A DNA stretch of 64,000 bases from Escherichia coli phage Shin27: the sequence record LC788709.1. The stretch is one strand, 5' to 3'. The position numbers and the translations under genes were made by a program. Below the pieces are notes generated by a model. That model was not told where the DNA came from, ran no database searches, and was given only the letters and a program-made list of their open reading frames with translations. Positions 20,595 through 63,801 of this stretch are shown piece by piece. Each line of letters opens with the position of its first letter. The stretch's first letter is position 1.

Positions 20595-21808
20595 TCTTTA
20601 TCCCCATCGGCAGTGCCTTGCGGTCTACCACCTTCTTGACCAGATACACCTGTTGCAGAACCAGCAACGTTAGCAGGAATACGAATCTTATTCATCTGCT
20701 CATCATCTAAAGGTTCAAGGTTAAGCTCTTCACGAGCCTCGTTACCAGTCATGATACCGTTATTAACCAAAGAGGTTAAATGTTTAGCCTCAGCTTCTTT
20801 ATCTGGCGTCAGTGCAGCTACTTCCTTAGTATTAGGAGTAACCTTGTAGCCAAAGAAGAAAGTAAGAGAACTAGTCAGCTTGTTCAGCATAGGAATGACA
20901 GTCATGTAATAGAACAATTCGATGTTTGGTCGAATGTTAGCATTATTACCACCATCAAGTAACACTTGCGGAACACCAAAGGCAAGACAGATGGATTTAT
21001 TAAATCCTTCGATATCTTCCTTGAAGTCTAGATCTTTAAAAGAGGATATTTGGGAGTACGGTTTTGCTTTCATACCACCATCTAGAATCAGGACAGTAGA
21101 CTGACCAGTACTAGGATTATAATCGAGTTGTAATTCTTCTTGTTTACGCTCACGCAATTTCTTGTTCAGGATTTCATCCGTCTCAAGAATAAGACCAATC
21201 ACAGTGCCGTTATCGAGGAACTTCTCTTTAAAGTTAAGCATTTTAGAACGCTTCTCAAGAGAGTCAATAACTGTAGCAACACGAGATTGTCCAGAAATTT
21301 GGGAGTTTGTGCCACACACGTAACTGTTATCCTTTATAAAGATAATCTCATCTACGCGATAGTCTATCTGGTTATTAAATATGAATTTTTTGATAAACTT
21401 ATTGGCATCTGCCTCTACTTGCATTAGTGCAGCAGGGACATGGTAAAGTGCTGTGCCATCCCAATAGATGTATGCACAACCCTCAAAAAGTAGGTCAGTG
21501 ACTACAAGTCTACGGAATGTGCTTATATCCATGAATGGATTAGGTCGTACATTTAAGAGAGTGTCTAGAGTCTTTGCCTTGACGCCATTAGCGTACGTGA
21601 CAATATTATATTTATCTCCGACAGTATAAGAACACTCCGCCGCACTATCGATAACCATGTTAGCAGTTCGGTTGAGAATCTCAATCTTACTGTAGGCTTG
21701 TCCAGTGGTAAATGGCTTACGGTTAGTGCGATGACTAACTGGTTCCATGTCTCTTATAATACGTTGACCCGGATTTAGCTTTTCAGTAATCCAGCTTTTT
21801 AAACCCAT
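20591..21808 (-). CDS. portal protein (T5 pb7-like)
   Basis: 405-aa ORF downstream of terminase; size and position typical. Confidence 0.75.
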   Translation of the reverse strand: MGLKSWITEKLNPGQRIIRDMEPVSHRTNRKPFTTGQAYSKIEILNRTANMVIDSAAECSYTVGDKYNIVTYANGVKAKTLDTLLNVRPNPFMDISTFRRLVVTDLLFEGCAYIYWDGTALYHVPAALMQVEADANKFIKKFIFNNQIDYRVDEIIFIKDNSYVCGTNSQISGQSRVATVIDSLEKRSKMLNFKEKFLDNGTVIGLILETDEILNKKLRERKQEELQLDYNPSTGQSTVLILDGGMKAKPYSQISSFKDLDFKEDIEGFNKSICLAFGVPQVLLDGGNNANIRPNIELFYYMTVIPMLNKLTSSLTFFFGYKVTPNTKEVAALTPDKEAEAKHLTSLVNNGIMTGNEAREELNLEPLDDEQMNKIRIPANVAGSATGVSGQEGGRPQGTADGDKE

Positions 21809-22332
21809 TATAAGAACCTTGCGAATCCTGATTTAGTTTCAGTCTTGACTTGTGTCTTTTCTTGAGGATTCTGTAGCTTTTCCTTTTGTTTAAGAACCCA
21901 TGCCTTCTGCTTATTAGCGGAAAAAAGAGGAGGTTCTTTAGTGTACACCTTATGTAATAGTTGGTGATGGTGTACACAAAGGGTAACAGTGTCATCTACT
22001 AGCTCATGCCTATATCTTTCATAGAATGCCGTCCTATTTGAGAGGACTGTTTCTTCGTCAGTGAAATCCAATTGGAGTTCTTTAGCAAATTTTTTGACTA
22101 GTAGAGACACTGTATGGTAATGATGAAGCTCTAATTCTTCACCACAACCACAGATTTCGCAGCGATCGGCTTTTTTATATTGACTTTTTATACCATCTCG
22201 CATGAGTGATATAGCATCACGTTTATATTTTACATTTCCTGCCACAGTATTCTCCTCAACTGTATGAATATAGTATACATAATCATGTCGAATTTGTAAA
22301 GGGGATTTTAAAATGCAGGAATGGGATACCAA
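21808..22332 (-). CDS. HNH endonuclease
   Basis: 174-aa ORF with CEICGC and HHY / VHHHQLLH motifs; inserted between terminase and portal. Confidence 0.5.
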   Translation of the reverse strand: MVSHSCILKSPLQIRHDYVYYIHTVEENTVAGNVKYKRDAISLMRDGIKSQYKKADRCEICGCGEELELHHYHTVSLLVKKFAKELQLDFTDEETVLSNRTAFYERYRHELVDDTVTLCVHHHQLLHKVYTKEPPLFSANKQKAWVLKQKEKLQNPQEKTQVKTETKSGFARFL

Positions 22333-22359: not shown

Positions 22360-23676
22360 TTATTTCCCACGGGAAATTGAGTAAATTCCATAACGCAGTG
22401 CGTCACAAAGGTGAGAGTTCGCATCATGACGTGGTTTTTCACGTGATAATTTCTCTTCGCCTTCCTGGAAGTCCCACTTGTAGTTCGCTAGGGCGTGGAT
22501 CAATGAGGTACATGAAGCATCTACGATGATCTTACCTTGCTGGAACAGTGCTTGCAGGCATGCCAAACCATCTAGGACAGATTTCTTAGCAGGTGCAGAA
22601 GCGATTTCATGTTCATAGGCTAAGTCCTGACGGAACTGAGCAGCAGCGGAGTCTACAAATATACGATCAACATTATAACGATCTATGCAGTGTTGGATAT
22701 AAGCAGCGTGTTGAGCTGTAGTCTTTTCAGCTTGCTGATACTCTTCCAGTACGTAGTAAATATCTTCATCGTAGTGATACTTAATAGTAAGAACTGCTGT
22801 AGGATCACGATAACCAACGTCGATACCAAGTAATGTTTCGAATGCTTCATCATCTTTAAAGAAGTGACGCATACCCTTGAGGTCTTTAACATGCTCTATA
22901 GCATTGAAAGTATCAAAGATCTGACCTTCGAATACGGAGAAGTCAGCTTCATATTCTTGGCGGAAGTAGTTTTTACTAACAGTACGACGCGCTTCCTCGA
23001 TATCGTTCAGGTCAGCACGTGGGTTATCACGATATGTACCATGAATGGATACCCAGTTAGGTAACGTTTCGTTAAATCCTTTCTCGTAGAACTCTTTGAA
23101 CCAGTTACCACCACGAGGTGTGGAAATAAATAGAGCTTTAGAGTTTGGCTTATCTAGGGTAGGACGTAACTGAATATCGAAAGCTGCACCACCAACGTCG
23201 GAAATCGCTGCTTCGTCAAAAATGATGAAGTCATATGAACGACCAACCGCGGAGTCAGCCTGAGCCGCAGAAGCTAGTTTAAAGAGAGAACCATTCGCCA
23301 GTTCAATCTCTTTATCTTTGGCATTCTCACGTTCAGTCTGTAGTCCATACTTCTTAATAAGACCACGAATCTGAGACCAACCGATATTAGCTAGGGAGTA
23401 GTTAGGTGCAACTACCAGCACCTTCACATTAGGTTCCAGAAGTTTTAGGAACCCAAGTGTATATGCGATGAATGACTTACCTACACGACGTGATACACAT
23501 GCAGTCACGAAGCGGTGTTTTGGGTCTTCCAGCGCATTAATGATTGCAATCTGAGGGGCATTAGGTGTAATCCCCTCTTGAGCTAAAATGCTAGAGACTG
23601 GCAGACGGAAGAATCGTTTGTCAATACCAAAGTCAATAACATCTGTGGTGTTAATATAGTCTCTAGAGACTTTCAT
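22360..23676 (-). CDS. terminase large subunit
   Basis: 438-aa ORF; Walker A-like CVSRRVGKS, Walker B-like IIFDEAA, C-terminal nuclease acidic motifs. Confidence 0.85.
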   Translation of the reverse strand: MKVSRDYINTTDVIDFGIDKRFFRLPVSSILAQEGITPNAPQIAIINALEDPKHRFVTACVSRRVGKSFIAYTLGFLKLLEPNVKVLVVAPNYSLANIGWSQIRGLIKKYGLQTERENAKDKEIELANGSLFKLASAAQADSAVGRSYDFIIFDEAAISDVGGAAFDIQLRPTLDKPNSKALFISTPRGGNWFKEFYEKGFNETLPNWVSIHGTYRDNPRADLNDIEEARRTVSKNYFRQEYEADFSVFEGQIFDTFNAIEHVKDLKGMRHFFKDDEAFETLLGIDVGYRDPTAVLTIKYHYDEDIYYVLEEYQQAEKTTAQHAAYIQHCIDRYNVDRIFVDSAAAQFRQDLAYEHEIASAPAKKSVLDGLACLQALFQQGKIIVDASCTSLIHALANYKWDFQEGEEKLSREKPRHDANSHLCDALRYGIYSISRGK

Positions 23677-24158
23677 TATCTCTTACCTCCTCCTGCTAGA
23701 GCGGTAATAAGATTCATATAGTTTTCGTCACCACTTCCAGCAATAATATTATTCTGAATATTAGTCTGGTTAGCCGGAGTACGGGCTGCTGCCTTCACTT
23801 TCTCCAGTTCTACCATCATTTTCATTTCTTCCATCTTCATCTTGTGCGCCTTCCAGAGAATATCCATGATATCCTGGTCAGAACCCATGCCAGTTTCTTC
23901 AAGTTCTTCCAGCTTACGCTTGATAACTTCGTCAAGAACTCCGAATAAGCGGTCACGATTACGGAAGCCACTTTCCATAAAGATATCGTTGAGATAGTTT
24001 TTAACTTCCCCACGATTCATTATATCACGGAATGCAATCTCGGACATTCCAAGACTACGAGCGGCGGCAGGAACATCACTACCGCACTGTAAATAGGCTT
24101 CAATAACATCCATGCCTTCGGGAGACATGAGATCGGGAACTAATACATCATTTGCCAT
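23676..24158 (-). CDS. terminase small subunit (putative, HTH)
   Basis: 160-aa ORF translationally coupled upstream of large subunit; helix-turn-helix-like segment. Confidence 0.5.
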
Positions 24159-24168
24159 ATATCCTCCT

Positions 24169-25950
24169 TTAGGTTAGGCGTTGAACTGTTACACGTAGTC
24201 TTGGCAAGAAAACAGCTGCCGCTTCTGCAGCGTGAATGATAACACCCAACTCAACGTTGCCATTACCAAGGTTTTTAATAGTATAAATATATCCGTTCCT
24301 ACGGAAAGCAAACTCATCAGGCCTACTAGCCCAAGTCTGTGTATAACTATAGGAAGTTGTACTGTGATAAGGTACTAGATATCCAGGTGGCAGAGTAAGA
24401 ATCTGGTGGAATACACCATCACCAGCTGTATAACTTTGTTGACGTCTACCTTGTACCTGCCAAGCGCTACCGCCGTAAGTACGCACAGGCATTCCAGCAG
24501 TATTAAGATTACCCATAATAACTTCAGTAGTTAATATAACAGTAGAGTGAGCATTTGGTAATCCCAACCAAACTGTGGCCAAAGGTGTGTAGAAGTCACC
24601 AGCACCAGGGTAGGATGGAGTTATATCGTCCCCTACATAAGTACTTGCAACGTTGCCTGGGAATAACCTGAGTGGTACAGTACTAGGACTCCACACAGGT
24701 CCATGTTCATTACCAATGGAGTTGGTATTAGTATCTACATACCATTGTTTACCTACACCAAATTTATATAAGCTAATTTGAGAAGCTGCACCCCCATAGT
24801 TAACAGGAGACCACAACCCGCCATTACTAGAGCCGATAAATTCACATCGTGCAGTATTATCACCAAAAACTCCGGTATACGCAGCGTTATTACCAACATA
24901 CTCCATATCAGGGCGATAGCCTAAGTTTCCGAAAGCATTCTGGTTAATAAATTTATAGCCTGTATTTGGTAGGCTAACACCTTTAATAGTAAAATTAGAC
25001 GGAGATATTAGGATATCTGAACCGGTAAATGGATTACCAGAAACTCCCATACTACCATTAGAATAGCGCAGATTTAGCACATACCAAATAACCTTAGTTG
25101 GCGTAACGTTATACCAGTCCTGTACATATACCTTTCTAGCAGACTGAGCAGCCATATTAGAAGTAGAACCTCTACAAACATATATTTTTTCTGGGTATGC
25201 AGGAGATTGGTAAAGAACGTTTACGTTATCTGGTAGTACGCCTTTTTTACCTGCGAAGCCACGAATATTAGAACTACAAACATAAAACCAATCATGGCCT
25301 CTACCAGCAGAACCAATAGGCGCCTGCCAGTTAGGTTCCCAATAATCTGCGTTACCACCATCTAAAGGAACAGTAGAGACACCAGTTGGAAAACCCATAA
25401 GACTCCAGGCTCTGGCAATGGCTTCACCAGCAGAAACACCACCAGGTCTAAAGATCTGGAAACCAGAGGACTGTAGTAAACTGCCTCCAGAACCTTGCCT
25501 AGCAATAGATTCCTCATGACCAAGACCACCATTATAGATATAAGTACCATGAGCTAAACTATCACCGATCGCAAAAGCAGATGTTACAGATAATTCAGCA
25601 CCAGCACGTGGTGGGTCTTCAAAGAATGATAAGAACTGGCCAACCTGAGATTGAGTACCATTCAGAAATCCACGATGAGTACCGTTTATCTCAATAGCAG
25701 TTAATATAACTCTACCCGGATCATTGGATTTAATATTTATAATATCCCAAGGCATCTGAGTAACAAAGTATCCATTACCTGCATTACCTAGGGCTGCTTC
25801 ATAAGTCCCATCAACTAGGACAAATGGCATATCTGAGTGGAAGATACTATTAGTATTTGGAGAGTAGTGCTGATTTATATCACCACCATTAGCAGCGTTT
25901 AGAGATAATACAGTTTTACCATCACTAAATTTTCCTGCGAAAAAACTCAT
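24169..25950 (-). CDS. receptor-binding tail protein (T5 pb5/Oad-like)
   Basis: 593-aa Gly/Asn/Tyr-rich ORF at the end of the late module, divergent from a lipoprotein gene as for T5 oad-llp. Confidence 0.5.
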
Positions 25951-25975
25951 ACAATCTCCTTCTTTAAAAATGTAT

Positions 25976-26004
25976 TTGCTTAGATCCCTCTATTTTGCTA
26001 TAAT
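25976..26004 (+). promoter_or_regulatory. T5-type sigma70 promoter (TTGCTT-N17-TATAAT) for the llp-like gene
   Basis: consensus hexamers with 17-bp spacer, AT-rich leader ATATTTATAAATT, ~30 bp upstream of ATG at 26034. Confidence 0.6.
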
Positions 26005-26033
26005 ATATTTATAAATTAAACAGAGGAACGATT

Positions 26034-26300
26034 ATGAAAAAGTTACTAGCCATCGTAGTTGCAGCAGTAGTGTTGACGGGTTGTGTGCCAGCTCCCGAGC
26101 CATTTTGTAAGGCATATGTGAAGTCTTATGGTCATGTTGGTGAAGAACACTACGCTTTAGATATTCGAGAAGCACGTACTGTGGGCTACCGATTCCCTAA
26201 AACTCAGTTACGCACTAAGTTTGGGTGGTGGGATTTGTCACAGTTTGATCTCAAATATGGTGATTGCAAATTTAAACTAGAACAATCTGGTCACTTGTAA
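26034..26300 (+). CDS. llp: lipoprotein, Llp-like receptor-blocking / superinfection-exclusion candidate
   Basis: 88-aa ORF with signal peptide and lipobox LTGC; divergent from putative RBP gene; own sigma70 promoter. Confidence 0.55.
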   Translation: MKKLLAIVVAAVVLTGCVPAPEPFCKAYVKSYGHVGEEHYALDIREARTVGYRFPKTQLRTKFGWWDLSQFDLKYGDCKFKLEQSGHL

Positions 26301-26629
26301 TTAGTATAAAGTAAAAAGATCTCGAAGTAAACAAAAATTTTTATTTCTGGGATGAGGTACAGGTAGCAAACACAATGCAAGATGAAGAAAAGTCCTTTCA
26401 GGAACCTGTTAACTTTGAAATAAATCCCAGGAATAAAAAGCAATACATGATGCAATTGATGAAATCATTCAAGACGTCATAGAAGATACAATAGAAGACG
26501 TGATGGGAACATCCTTCTTACTAGAAGAATCCGGCTTCGACGAAGTAATGGATCTAATCGGGACAGTCGTAATGGTTCGTGCAATTGCTAGGGTATTCCA
26601 AATACCAAGACTATAGGAGAAGCAAAGAG

Positions 26630-26764
26630 ATGTCAGACGACAACAGAAGAAAGAACAGACGCGGGGAAGTGTACGAAAGTTGGATAAATAGTTTCGGATT
26701 CGGGACTGTGTTATTCTTTATCTTTGTACTCTTTTGGTTAGCAGCTATGGCGGGGTGGTTATAA
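26630..26764 (+). CDS. small membrane protein
   Basis: 44-aa ORF from ATG with AGGAG RBS, basic N-terminus and C-terminal TM helix; ORF track gives a longer GTG-start version from 26579. Confidence 0.35.
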   Translation: MSDDNRRKNRRGEVYESWINSFGFGTVLFFIFVLFWLAAMAGWL

Positions 26765-26868
26765 TGGAAGTAGTAATTATTACTTTACTAGTTGTGGTAA
26801 TTATAGGGCAGTGTATTTTAGATAACCACTTAGCTCGTATTGAACGTAAGCTGCGGGGAGATAAATAA
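26764..26868 (+). CDS. small membrane peptide
   Basis: 34-aa ORF, N-terminal TM helix, stop overlaps next start (TAATG). Confidence 0.3.
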   Translation: MEVVIITLLVVVIIGQCILDNHLARIERKLRGDK

Positions 26869-27062
26869 TGGATTGGTTAGGACTTATTACACTTGTAGTA
26901 TGGATTGTCTGGATTGTTGGATACATGACGTCACATCGTAATCGTATACAGAAGCTAGAGGATAAAGTCACCCAACTAAACATTAATATGGATAAGTTAC
27001 TGGACTCCCAACGTAATGATCGGGCGCGTATTCACCAACTTGAGAGGGAATTAGATGTTTAG
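26868..27062 (+). CDS. small membrane protein with coiled-coil tail
   Basis: 64-aa ORF, N-terminal TM, translationally coupled. Confidence 0.4.
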   Translation: MDWLGLITLVVWIVWIVGYMTSHRNRIQKLEDKVTQLNINMDKLLDSQRNDRARIHQLERELDV

Positions 27063-27300
27063 CTTTGTAGCTATCTTCATTATCGGAGTGCTTGCGGGGA
27101 TCTTCGGAACACTCGGGGCGATTAACAAGCATCGTGAATACGTTGCGGGAATATCGCGGGAGCTTTCGGAAAGGGAGCGGAGGTTTGCGGAGAAACGTGC
27201 GGAGTTTGAGCGGGAGTGGTCGGATGGATCTCGGGCGTCGCGGAGGAGATTTCGTATGTCAGAATCAGGAGACAAGCCGGTAGACCGGTGTTCCTCCTAA
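27055..27300 (+). CDS. small membrane protein with charged coiled-coil tail
   Basis: 81-aa ORF, N-terminal TM, R/E-rich C-terminus. Confidence 0.4.
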   Translation: MFSFVAIFIIGVLAGIFGTLGAINKHREYVAGISRELSERERRFAEKRAEFEREWSDGSRASRRRFRMSESGDKPVDRCSS

Positions 27301-27463
27301 GTTAGCGCTAATTACCAATTCTCGAAATCTCATAAGATTACACATGAAGGTGTGCCCAGAGGTTACCTAGATGAGAATGAGTCTCATTACCGCCCCGGTA
27401 CTTAGCAAGCTAATAGTCACACTATGTGATGATAACATAGTGTGACTATTTTATTTTTAATTG

Positions 27464-28198
27464 TTAGGCGACTTTTAATTTATCAATGAATTGTTGCGGG
27501 CTGCAACTATATTCTGCGCGTTCTTCCTCGGTCATACCTTCCCAACACATTTTTAAACGGTCGGCTAGGAATTGATAATCATTATCATCATCTAATGATT
27601 CATCAATAAAGGTTTCACCGATCAATGTTACGCCGATTGATAGGATATCATTAACGGCTTGAGCGTCCAGCGTTTTAAATCCAGCACTTGCCGCCGCCGA
27701 TAATACGCCTTTATGATCATCAATCATCGTAAAATCAGCGTTCGGATATAACTGTTTAAACAGTTCAAAGTAATAGCTTTTGTATACAGCGTCTTTACTA
27801 TGATATATTTCGCTAACCTTATCCGCTTCAAAGTATTTGTGTAATGTATCGCGAGAGAATACGCGGATATTGCTATTTCCGCGCCCTCGCAAGCCTTGTT
27901 TACGCAAATAAAAGTAATCGCTTTTAGACATAAGGCGCGCGGTACAAATAATATTTAAAGTATTTGCATCATTCATACATTGGCGCATATATTCAACCAA
28001 TGGCAATAAAGAATCCTGCATAATTAAATCATGTTTACAGGCTTCGCGTGAATACTTATTTAAATTTAAATTCCCGTTATCATCAAAGCAAGGCGCTACA
28101 CGGTGGAAAGAATTAATGATAGTTCCGTCTAAGTCCCAAATCATAACGCGGGAAATATGCGGGAAAGCGCGGGCAATATTCAAGGTTACTTGATTCAT
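27464..28198 (-). CDS. dmp: HAD-family 5'-deoxyribonucleotidase (T5 Dmp-like)
   Basis: 244-aa ORF with HAD motif I (IWDLDGTI); size and position next to A1-like gene. Confidence 0.65.
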   Translation of the reverse strand: MNQVTLNIARAFPHISRVMIWDLDGTIINSFHRVAPCFDDNGNLNLNKYSREACKHDLIMQDSLLPLVEYMRQCMNDANTLNIICTARLMSKSDYFYLRKQGLRGRGNSNIRVFSRDTLHKYFEADKVSEIYHSKDAVYKSYYFELFKQLYPNADFTMIDDHKGVLSAAASAGFKTLDAQAVNDILSIGVTLIGETFIDESLDDDNDYQFLADRLKMCWEGMTEEERAEYSCSPQQFIDKLKVA

Positions 28199-60188: not shown

Positions 60189-60217
60189 ATTATAACAAGA
60201 AATTAAGCATCAAGCAA
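60189..60217 (-). promoter_or_regulatory. T5-type early promoter (TTGCTT-N17-TATAAT)
   Basis: upstream of the ORF-free segment and tRNAs 59767-59926. Confidence 0.55.
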
Positions 60218-60569
60218 GTACATTTTTAGCGATTTCTTGTATTTCCTTAACGTCACTAACGAAAAGGTAATCAGAGCTTCCAGAGTGCATACTCTGCATA
60301 ACCACACCATCCTCTGGTGCATCTTCTTTCAAAGTAATACCTAACCAGAACTCGGCAAAACTAGGTGTTACCTCACCTTGACTTGCCTTGAATACATCGG
60401 CTTCTGTGATCTCCTGACCAGTAGAGAGTCCCATGTACGGTACGTTCAGATCAATATCTTTGTAAAACTCAGCTAGATCTTGTTCGAAGTCCCAACCTTT
60501 AGAGATAGCGAACTCCATTGTTACATGACCGAAATAGCCTTGAACCTTGCTTGATAATTGCATTTGCAA
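60210..60569 (-). CDS. hypothetical acidic protein
   Basis: 119-aa ORF. Confidence 0.4.
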   Translation of the reverse strand: MQMQLSSKVQGYFGHVTMEFAISKGWDFEQDLAEFYKDIDLNVPYMGLSTGQEITEADVFKASQGEVTPSFAEFWLGITLKEDAPEDGVVMQSMHSGSSDYLFVSDVKEIQEIAKNVLA

Positions 60570-61577: not shown

Positions 61578-61606
61578 ATTATACAGAGAATTAAGCTAAA
61601 TAGCAA
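61578..61606 (-). promoter_or_regulatory. T5-type early promoter (TTGCTA-N17-TATAAT)
   Basis: upstream of tRNA-Pro and the CAT tRNA. Confidence 0.55.
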
Positions 61607-61624
61607 CTACATTTTTTAATAAAT

Positions 61625-63763: not shown

Positions 63764-63792
63764 ATTATACAGAACTTTAAGCGGTTAAGCAA
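63764..63792 (-). promoter_or_regulatory. T5-type early promoter (TTGCTT-N17-TATAAT)
   Basis: upstream of 63510..63752. Confidence 0.55.
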
Positions 63793-63801
63793 CTACATTT
63801 T

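Follow-up and report, generated by a model that had tools for sequence, protein, structure and literature searches.

The divergent gene pair at positions 24169–26300 of the window (the whole stretch of DNA analysed here, 64 000 nucleotides of Escherichia coli phage Shin27, LC788709.1) is very probably a BF23/EPS7-type host-recognition module of a T5-like Epseptimavirus, consisting of a receptor-binding protein and a small lipoprotein, Llp, that would block BtuB. The module is already known, its allele being identical or near-identical in dozens of deposited and annotated phage genomes. Indeed, the hrs-llp pair of BF23 (Mondigler et al. 2006; DQ097178) and its counterparts in EPS7, SPC35, DT57C, JNwz02 and Bas26 are arranged in the same order, are likewise divergent, stand directly upstream of terS and terL, and carry identical −35 and −10 hexamers in the same alignment columns. 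Within these modules, the receptor-binding proteins are 66–98% and the Llps 68–100% identical to those of the window, for which BtuB is predicted as the receptor. Since such modules have been annotated and published for many phages, the locus holds little novelty as such.

As described in the initial annotation, a 593-aa open reading frame (ORF) on the minus strand (24169..25950, ATG start) is transcribed divergently from an 88-aa ORF on the plus strand (26034..26300, ATG start). A spacer of 83 bp (25951–26033) separates the two. The former is the gene of a receptor-binding tail-tip protein (oad/hrs homologue) and the latter is the putative llp, encoding the precursor of a receptor-blocking (superinfection-exclusion, lytic-conversion) lipoprotein. 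Both genes possess good ribosome-binding sites, as seen by direct reading: AAGGAG for the receptor-binding protein gene (25956..25961, minus strand, 5 nt before the ATG) and GAGGA for llp (26023..26027, plus strand, 6 nt before the ATG). Hundreds of homologues rule out that these are chance ORFs. Over the 3.2 kb around the gene pair, the DNA is 99.9% identical to Salmonella phage bux (three mismatches), in whose record the two genes are labelled ‘receptor-binding tail protein’ and ‘receptor-blocking protein’, and the same region is matched at more than 97% identity by dozens of further T5-like phages of Salmonella and E. coli. By its sequence, the window is, like bux, a T5-like member of Epseptimavirus (Demerecviridae).

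The 593-aa gene opens an unbroken series of structural genes on the minus strand, approximately 26 kb long, and is followed by terS, terL, an HNH endonuclease gene and the portal gene. Its placement at the end of the late module, as initially annotated, is correct in terms of the map, but in terms of transcription it is the promoter-proximal first gene of the block. The small terminase subunit gene terS (23676..24158, minus strand; phrog_3802, E=2.2e-90, and bux annotation) begins 10 nt past the stop codon of the 593-aa gene and belongs to the same leftward late unit. This arrangement, with terS and then terL directly downstream, is the one reported as a rule for the pb5/Hrs family (PMC8594841). 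Within the spacer, a generic sigma-70 scan gave nothing convincing on the minus strand as a promoter of the receptor-binding gene. The T5 record annotates a minus-strand promoter for oad in its spacer, the hexamers of which could not be pinned down with confidence in the window.

The affiliation of the 593-aa protein to the pb5/Hrs family of receptor-binding tail-tip proteins can be considered as established, because sequence comparison and predicted fold agree. The protein matches phrog_4815 (‘receptor binding tail protein’) over residues 1–593 (E=3.2e-283), and phmmer against the PDB retrieved the T5 pb5 chains 8b14_B and 8a8c_B (E=1.7e-46). Pfam and NCBIfam scans returned nothing useful for either the 593-aa or the 88-aa protein; precomputed tables list PF26860 in all homologues of the 593-aa protein. 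An AF2 model built with 28 homologues reached a pLDDT of 88.8 and a pTM of 0.89; in a Foldseek comparison of this model with the PDB, pb5 was the sole significant match (E=2.8e-32 and 2.5e-28, TM 0.62–0.69), the next one being noise (E=7e-3, TM <0.1). T5 pb5 is approximately 32% identical to the 593-aa protein and 47 residues longer. Its length of 640 aa agrees with the figure of about 640 given in the initial annotation, which had noted the shorter size of the protein encoded in the window.

Conservation is unevenly distributed along the protein. Counted in bins of 50 aa, identity to T5 peaks at the N-terminus (52%) and reaches its minimum in residues 101–150 (14%); among BtuB binders, residues approximately 100–300 are the least conserved, and it is there that the receptor-binding protein of the window diverges most from those of the other BF23-type modules. 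Since this part is variable, and since, in pb5, insertion into FhuA involves the loops around residues 115 and 170 (PMC9586334), residues approximately 100–300 presumably form the receptor-contact end. When compared with JNwz02, the 593-aa protein shows 14 differences, mostly conservative, eight of which fall in residues 113–212. This concentration in the presumed receptor-contact region is an observation that counts against the assignment to BtuB.

Within the pb5 family, three clades have been described, for FhuA, FepA and BtuB (PMC8594841), and by sequence the 593-aa protein falls outside the FhuA and FepA clades and groups with the proteins of phages whose dependence on BtuB was shown by experiment. 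Its counterpart in MET_P1_137_112 is 100% identical, that in bux differs by a single amino acid, and identity is 97.6% in JNwz02 and S133, 85% in Bas26 and 83% in SPC35. Alignment with T5, BF23 and FepA-type relatives, the comparison that had been proposed at the outset, gave 76% identity to BF23 Hrs, 32% to T5 pb5 and 31–33% to the FhuA type (T5, oldekolle) and FepA type (S124) as a whole; between these extremes stand DT57C (66%) and phiR2-01 (59%). JNwz02, whose Llp is identical to that of the window, forms no plaques on a btuB deletion strain, on which adsorption amounts to 8% versus 91% on the wild type (PMC11014889). BF23, DT57C, SPC35/EPS7 and phiR2-01 are likewise BtuB-dependent (PMC4728585, PMC10644984, PMC8624392), and S133 is listed among BtuB-binding phages (PMC12980165). 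The receptor-binding proteins of the BtuB clade measure 585–595 aa versus 640 aa for pb5, a shorter length that is only a correlate of the clade. From these sequence relationships, the receptor of the 593-aa protein is most probably BtuB, which the protein itself would bind. The initial suspicion that the receptor may differ from that of T5 is thereby borne out, as the clade identities point to a BF23/EPS7-type BtuB module and not to a FhuA module (PMC11014889, PMC4728585, PMC8594841).

The 88-aa protein starts with MKKLLAIVVAAVVLTGC, that is, a lipoprotein signal peptide ending in the lipobox L-T-G-C. The signal peptide covers residues 1–16, cleavage being predicted between MKKLLAIVVAAVVLTG and Cys17 (codon 26082–26084, plus strand), the residue predicted to be lipidated, which leaves a mature protein of 72 aa. 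A match to Pfam LPAM_1 was marginal (E=0.0025, 18.6 bits versus a cut-off of 20). Three cysteines (Cys17, Cys25 and Cys78) are invariant across the family. This family is tiny: the BF23-type Llps form ten clusters at 90% identity, at 50% identity they come down to one representative in a set of 1.84 billion proteins, and a phmmer search of this set retrieved only the family itself, plus three spurious long proteins. Neither Pfam nor NCBIfam has a model for it, and a sequence search of the PDB with Llp gave no match.

Within the family, resemblance is strong. Llp is 100% identical in JNwz02, Bas26 (GreteKellenberger) and many Epseptimaviruses, and tblastn matched it to the SPC35/AKFV33-type Llp at E=1e-32. 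The BF23, DT57C and SPC35 proteins are 67–69% identical to it without gaps (BF23 Llp: 68% over 88 aa), the C-terminal half (QLRTKFGWWDLSQFDLKYGDCKFKLEQS) being nearly identical. The window carries the Epseptimavirus allele; about one-third of its positions depart from BF23 Llp, and most of these changes lie in the N-terminal half of mature Llp. According to Mondigler et al. (2006), as cited in PMC4728585, BF23 Llp blocks BtuB. The cloned llp of DT57C, one residue away from that of BF23, cut the plating of BF23 and of the DT57C group more than 100-fold and left T5 unaffected (PMC4728585). These comparisons support the 88-aa protein as a lipoprotein of the receptor-blocking (Llp) kind, and its 68% identity to the BF23 and DT57C proteins suggests that it would block BtuB as well. 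For the Epseptimavirus variant, at 32% divergence from BF23 Llp, we found no published exclusion test. In the phage collection, BF23-type llp genes occur almost only beside BtuB-type receptor-binding genes. The exception is Cit2, in which a BF23-type Llp reportedly accompanies a receptor-binding protein of the T5 type (PMC12980165); receptor-binding and llp genes are therefore not always matched.

The initial annotation had also attributed to the pair its own T5-type promoter, and this is justified for llp by the spacer hexamers, their conservation and the BF23 annotation. The promoter, a T5-type (early-class) sigma-70 promoter at 25966..26017 on the plus strand, is recognized from its sequence, from pattern counts and from conservation. 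The spacer reads AAAAATGTAT-TTGCTT-(17 bp)-TGc-TATAAT-ATATT-T-ATAAATT, where an A-rich upstream element (AAAAATGTA) precedes the −35 TTGCTT (25976–25981), which is separated by 17 bp from the −10 hexamer within the extended element TGcTATAAT (25996–26004), followed by the discriminator ATATT (26005–26009) and a conserved ATAAATT (26011–26017), all on the plus strand. These hexamers match those of the classic T5 PN25 promoter. The generic sigma-70 scan passed over the llp promoter, as TTGCTT shares only three of six positions with TTGACA; reading the sequence itself and searching for the specific pattern brought it to light. The pattern TTGCTT-N16-18-TATAAT occurs three times in the window versus 0.15 expected, and a longer upstream motif (AAATGTAnTTGCTT) four times versus 0.26 expected, the other copies having the same flanks. 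When the spacers of seven T5-like phages, including T5 and BF23, were aligned, both hexamers (−35 and −10), the A-tract upstream of them and ATAAATT were invariant, even between T5 and the window, although the coding sequences on either side have diverged strongly. In the BF23 record (DQ097178), the −35 and −10 given for llp fall on these hexamers, which also lie inside the promoter feature of the T5 record, and an ATATT discriminator has been reported for T5 early promoters (PMC7472727). The llp of T5 is reportedly expressed early (Decker et al. 1994, as cited in PMC8624392), a timing that would also apply to llp in the window.

The comparison with the T5 oad (pb5)-llp pair, which is FhuA-specific (PDB 8B14, 8A8C, 8A60, 7QJF), needs to be made separately for the two proteins. 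The overall architecture, the promoter core of the spacer and the fold of the receptor-binding protein are the same, and the differences lie in the low identity to pb5 (about 32%) and in the receptor, predicted to be BtuB here and FhuA in T5. The initial statement that the pair mirrors that of T5 consequently holds for the arrangement, the spacer promoter and the homology to pb5, but does not extend to the sequence of mature Llp. Indeed, BF23-type and T5-type Llps have been termed non-homologous in the literature (PMC4728585, PMC10644984), and T5 Llp had no match to the Llp of the window by tblastn at E<0.01, nor by phmmer over 1.84 billion proteins. Both Llps match phrog_1119 (‘Cor superinfection exclusion protein’), and hhalign of full-length BF23-type and T5-type profiles gave a probability of 94.6%. 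After trimming of the signal peptide and lipobox, this probability fell to 0.5% (E=0.11). The full-length value was accordingly rejected as evidence of homology: since trimming abolishes the match, the signal in sequence is that of the signal peptide and not of a functional domain, and the shared phrog_1119 match may also be due largely to the signal peptide and lipobox. Between the mature Llp of the window and T5 Llp, tblastn, phmmer and hhalign detected no similarity in sequence.

T5 Llp is the best structural match to the predicted fold of the window Llp. The two proteins are of similar size, lipidated, and carry a cysteine pair near both mature ends: in T5 Llp, a Cys11–Cys58 disulfide ties the termini (PMC9586334), and in the mature Llp of the window the invariant cysteines occupy positions 9 and 62 (Cys25 and Cys78). 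The Cys9/Cys62 pair suggests, not conclusively, a fold shared with T5 Llp and possibly a common ancestry. The Llp of the window mirrors that of T5 in its arrangement and, probably, in fold and mechanism as well, but not in sequence. We tentatively consider that BtuB-blocking and FhuA-blocking Llps could belong to a single ancient family, that of small beta-barrel ‘plug-jamming’ lipoproteins with a disulfide staple, and could have diverged within it while co-diversifying with the receptor-binding protein, an idea to which we give somewhat less than even weight. If true, the mature domain would have been almost wholly rewritten for a different transporter plug, with the promoter, signal peptide, fold and cysteine staple retained. 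Cor proteins (T1, phi80, N15, HK022) are comparable in being small lipoproteins of the outer membrane by which a TonB-dependent transporter serving as phage receptor is inactivated; however, Cor acts on FhuA, and the ‘Cor’ label attached to Llp comes from a remote-homology cluster.

These elements can be assembled in the following scenario. The 593-aa protein would be made late, as the product of the gene that opens the leftward structural block, and would sit at the end of the straight tail fibre, where its irreversible binding to BtuB, the TonB-dependent vitamin B12 transporter, would lead to DNA ejection. In the infected cell, llp would be transcribed from its own strong T5 early-type sigma-70 promoter. 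Lipoproteins with a signal peptide, a lipobox and a residue other than Asp at position +2 are directed through the Lol pathway to the inner leaflet of the outer membrane, facing the periplasm. Llp, once exported and lipidated at Cys17, would likewise be sorted to that leaflet, because Val and not Asp occupies its position +2. There, as a disulfide-stapled small beta-barrel of approximately 70 residues, it may bind the periplasmic face and the plug of BtuB and lock the extracellular loops in a shape unfit for the receptor-binding protein, so that superinfection would be prevented and progeny would not be inactivated on cell debris. This putative periplasmic jamming of the BtuB plug is modelled on the FhuA–Llp crystal structure, in which T5 Llp binds the plug, in a non-native state, from the periplasm, and the extracellular loops fold inward and clash with the receptor-binding protein (PMC9586334).

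Other explanations of the locus have to be weighed against this scenario. The pair could target another TonB-dependent transporter than BtuB, whether FhuA, FepA or an unknown one: receptor switching is real in the pb5 family, as its three clades attest (PMC8594841), and the most variable part of the protein is precisely the presumed receptor-contact stretch of residues 100–300. Such a switch is very improbable in view of the 97.6% identity to S133 and to JNwz02, for which BtuB was identified by both knockout and adsorption (PMC11014889) and whose Llp is the same, whereas FhuA- and FepA-type proteins are only 31–33% identical; moreover, BtuB is retained as receptor even at 66% (DT57C) and 59% (phiR2-01) identity (PMC4728585, PMC8624392). 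Similarly, Llp might not act on the receptor of its own phage, but exclude unrelated phages through another outer-membrane protein, play a role in lysis or in the envelope, or be functionless. The Llp/receptor-binding protein mismatch of Cit2 (PMC12980165) and the small size of a family without Pfam or NCBIfam model would fit such a role. It is nonetheless improbable, as proteins 68% identical to Llp, those of BF23 and DT57C, protect against BtuB phages and not against T5 (PMC4728585), as it invariably lies beside the receptor-binding gene and has a conserved early-type promoter, and as Cit2 is the exception to an otherwise almost strict association of BF23-type llp with BtuB-type receptor-binding genes.

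A further alternative concerns the mechanism, in that a BtuB-type Llp might mask its receptor sterically from the cell surface instead of jamming the plug from the periplasm. The mature sequence being unrelated to that of T5 Llp, the mechanism need not be the same, and an early in vitro study, as cited in PMC9586334, had put T5 Llp outside the cell. By contrast, the signal peptide, the lipobox and the non-Asp residue at +2 predict an inner-leaflet lipoprotein facing the periplasm, and the pair of terminal cysteines is kept as in T5 Llp (PMC9586334), which makes surface masking unlikely, if slightly less so than the two preceding alternatives.

From a practical point of view, the phage of the window is predicted to use BtuB, and resistance is therefore expected to arise through loss of btuB. 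It would be redundant in cocktails with other BtuB phages, and cells that it infects should come to resist other BtuB-dependent phages and perhaps E colicins. To our knowledge, no BtuB–Llp complex has been solved. The likeness of the predicted fold to T5 Llp suggests that jamming by ‘reverse allostery’ extends to other TonB-dependent transporters. The specificity of the DT57C/BF23-type Llp differs from that of its T5 counterpart, as it confers no protection against T5 (PMC4728585).

Downstream of llp, the rest of its transcription unit (26376..27300, plus strand) comprises a disrupted phrog_16810 gene followed by small membrane-protein ORFs, which are homologues of T5.160–162 (26764–26868, 26868–27062 and 27055–27300, plus strand). 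The protein labelled ‘receptor blocking protein’ in S124 was rejected as a FepA-type comparator for Llp, because it is an unrelated phrog_16810 protein without signal peptide. An Rfam search of positions 23500–27700 returned no RNA family. A terminator scan detected a 16-bp hairpin followed by a T-run at 27412..27450 on the plus strand (fold −23.2 kcal/mol, z=−5.6), which likely serves as intrinsic terminator of the llp unit and lies immediately within the terminal repeat. T5 and SPC35 have, at the equivalent place, a hairpin that differs in sequence.

Directly downstream of llp, the receptor-blocking lipoprotein gene, lies a disrupted gene (window 26376-26615, + strand) whose homologues are phrog_16810, Bas26_0207 and orf155 of Salmonella phage S124. 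Both in the window and in the near-identical Salmonella phage bux, this gene carries a 2-nt insertion within an A-run (AATAAAAAGC versus ACT--AAAGC) and, further on, a second lesion in the form of a TAG (CTATAG versus CTACAG). The disrupted gene of this lineage is probably a pseudogene, or else a sequencing artefact common to both.

In S124 (MH370375), it is the phrog_16810 protein (1067-1500) that bears the label ‘receptor blocking protein / T5 Llp-like’. This protein has neither a signal peptide nor a lipobox, and no lipoprotein ORF lies beside the FepA-type receptor-binding gene of S124. The Llp-like annotation of S124 looks like a mistaken one, assigned by position, and Llp may be absent at this site in FepA-type phages. 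Citrobacter phage Cit2 is reported to pair a T5-like (FhuA-type) receptor-binding protein with a BF23-type Llp (PMC12980165); the Llp of Cit2 (OP745948) shares 68% identity with that of the window. This combination indicates that the receptor-binding gene and llp can be passed on with partners of different types.

At the other end of the llp unit, a hairpin with a fully paired 16-bp stem precedes a T-run (window 27412-27450; folding energy −23 kcal/mol, z = −5.6) and is likely to be the terminator of this unit. T5 and SPC35 display a hairpin at the matching place, but with a sequence unlike that of the window, so that the structure is conserved despite changes on both arms. The hairpin is located approximately 60 nt inside the terminal repeat, the start of which was placed near position 27354 by homology with the T5 annotation. 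An 81-aa membrane-protein ORF (27055-27300, + strand), homologous to T5.162, Bas26_0203 and SPC35_0145, is intact in the window and unannotated in the bux record.

A structural comparison with the predicted model of the window Llp returned a weak match (Foldseek E = 8e-3, TM 0.42-0.49) to an uncharacterised 75-aa protein of the T5-like Escherichia phage DT571/2 (BFVD A0A0A7RZG8). T5-like genomes may thus encode another small barrel protein besides Llp.

The T5 early-type promoter architecture, composed of AAATGTAnTTGCTT, a 17-bp spacer, TATAAT and ATAAATTGA downstream, recurs on the − strand (60189-60225, 61601-61614 and 63764-63800); these additional copies presumably serve early genes located towards the distant end of the window. 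Finally, an HNH-type endonuclease gene (21808-22332, − strand) lies between the portal and large terminase genes; the bux record lists it as a ‘putative nicking site-specific endonuclease’ of 145 aa, while the mechanical ORF call for the window is longer (174 aa, TTG start).
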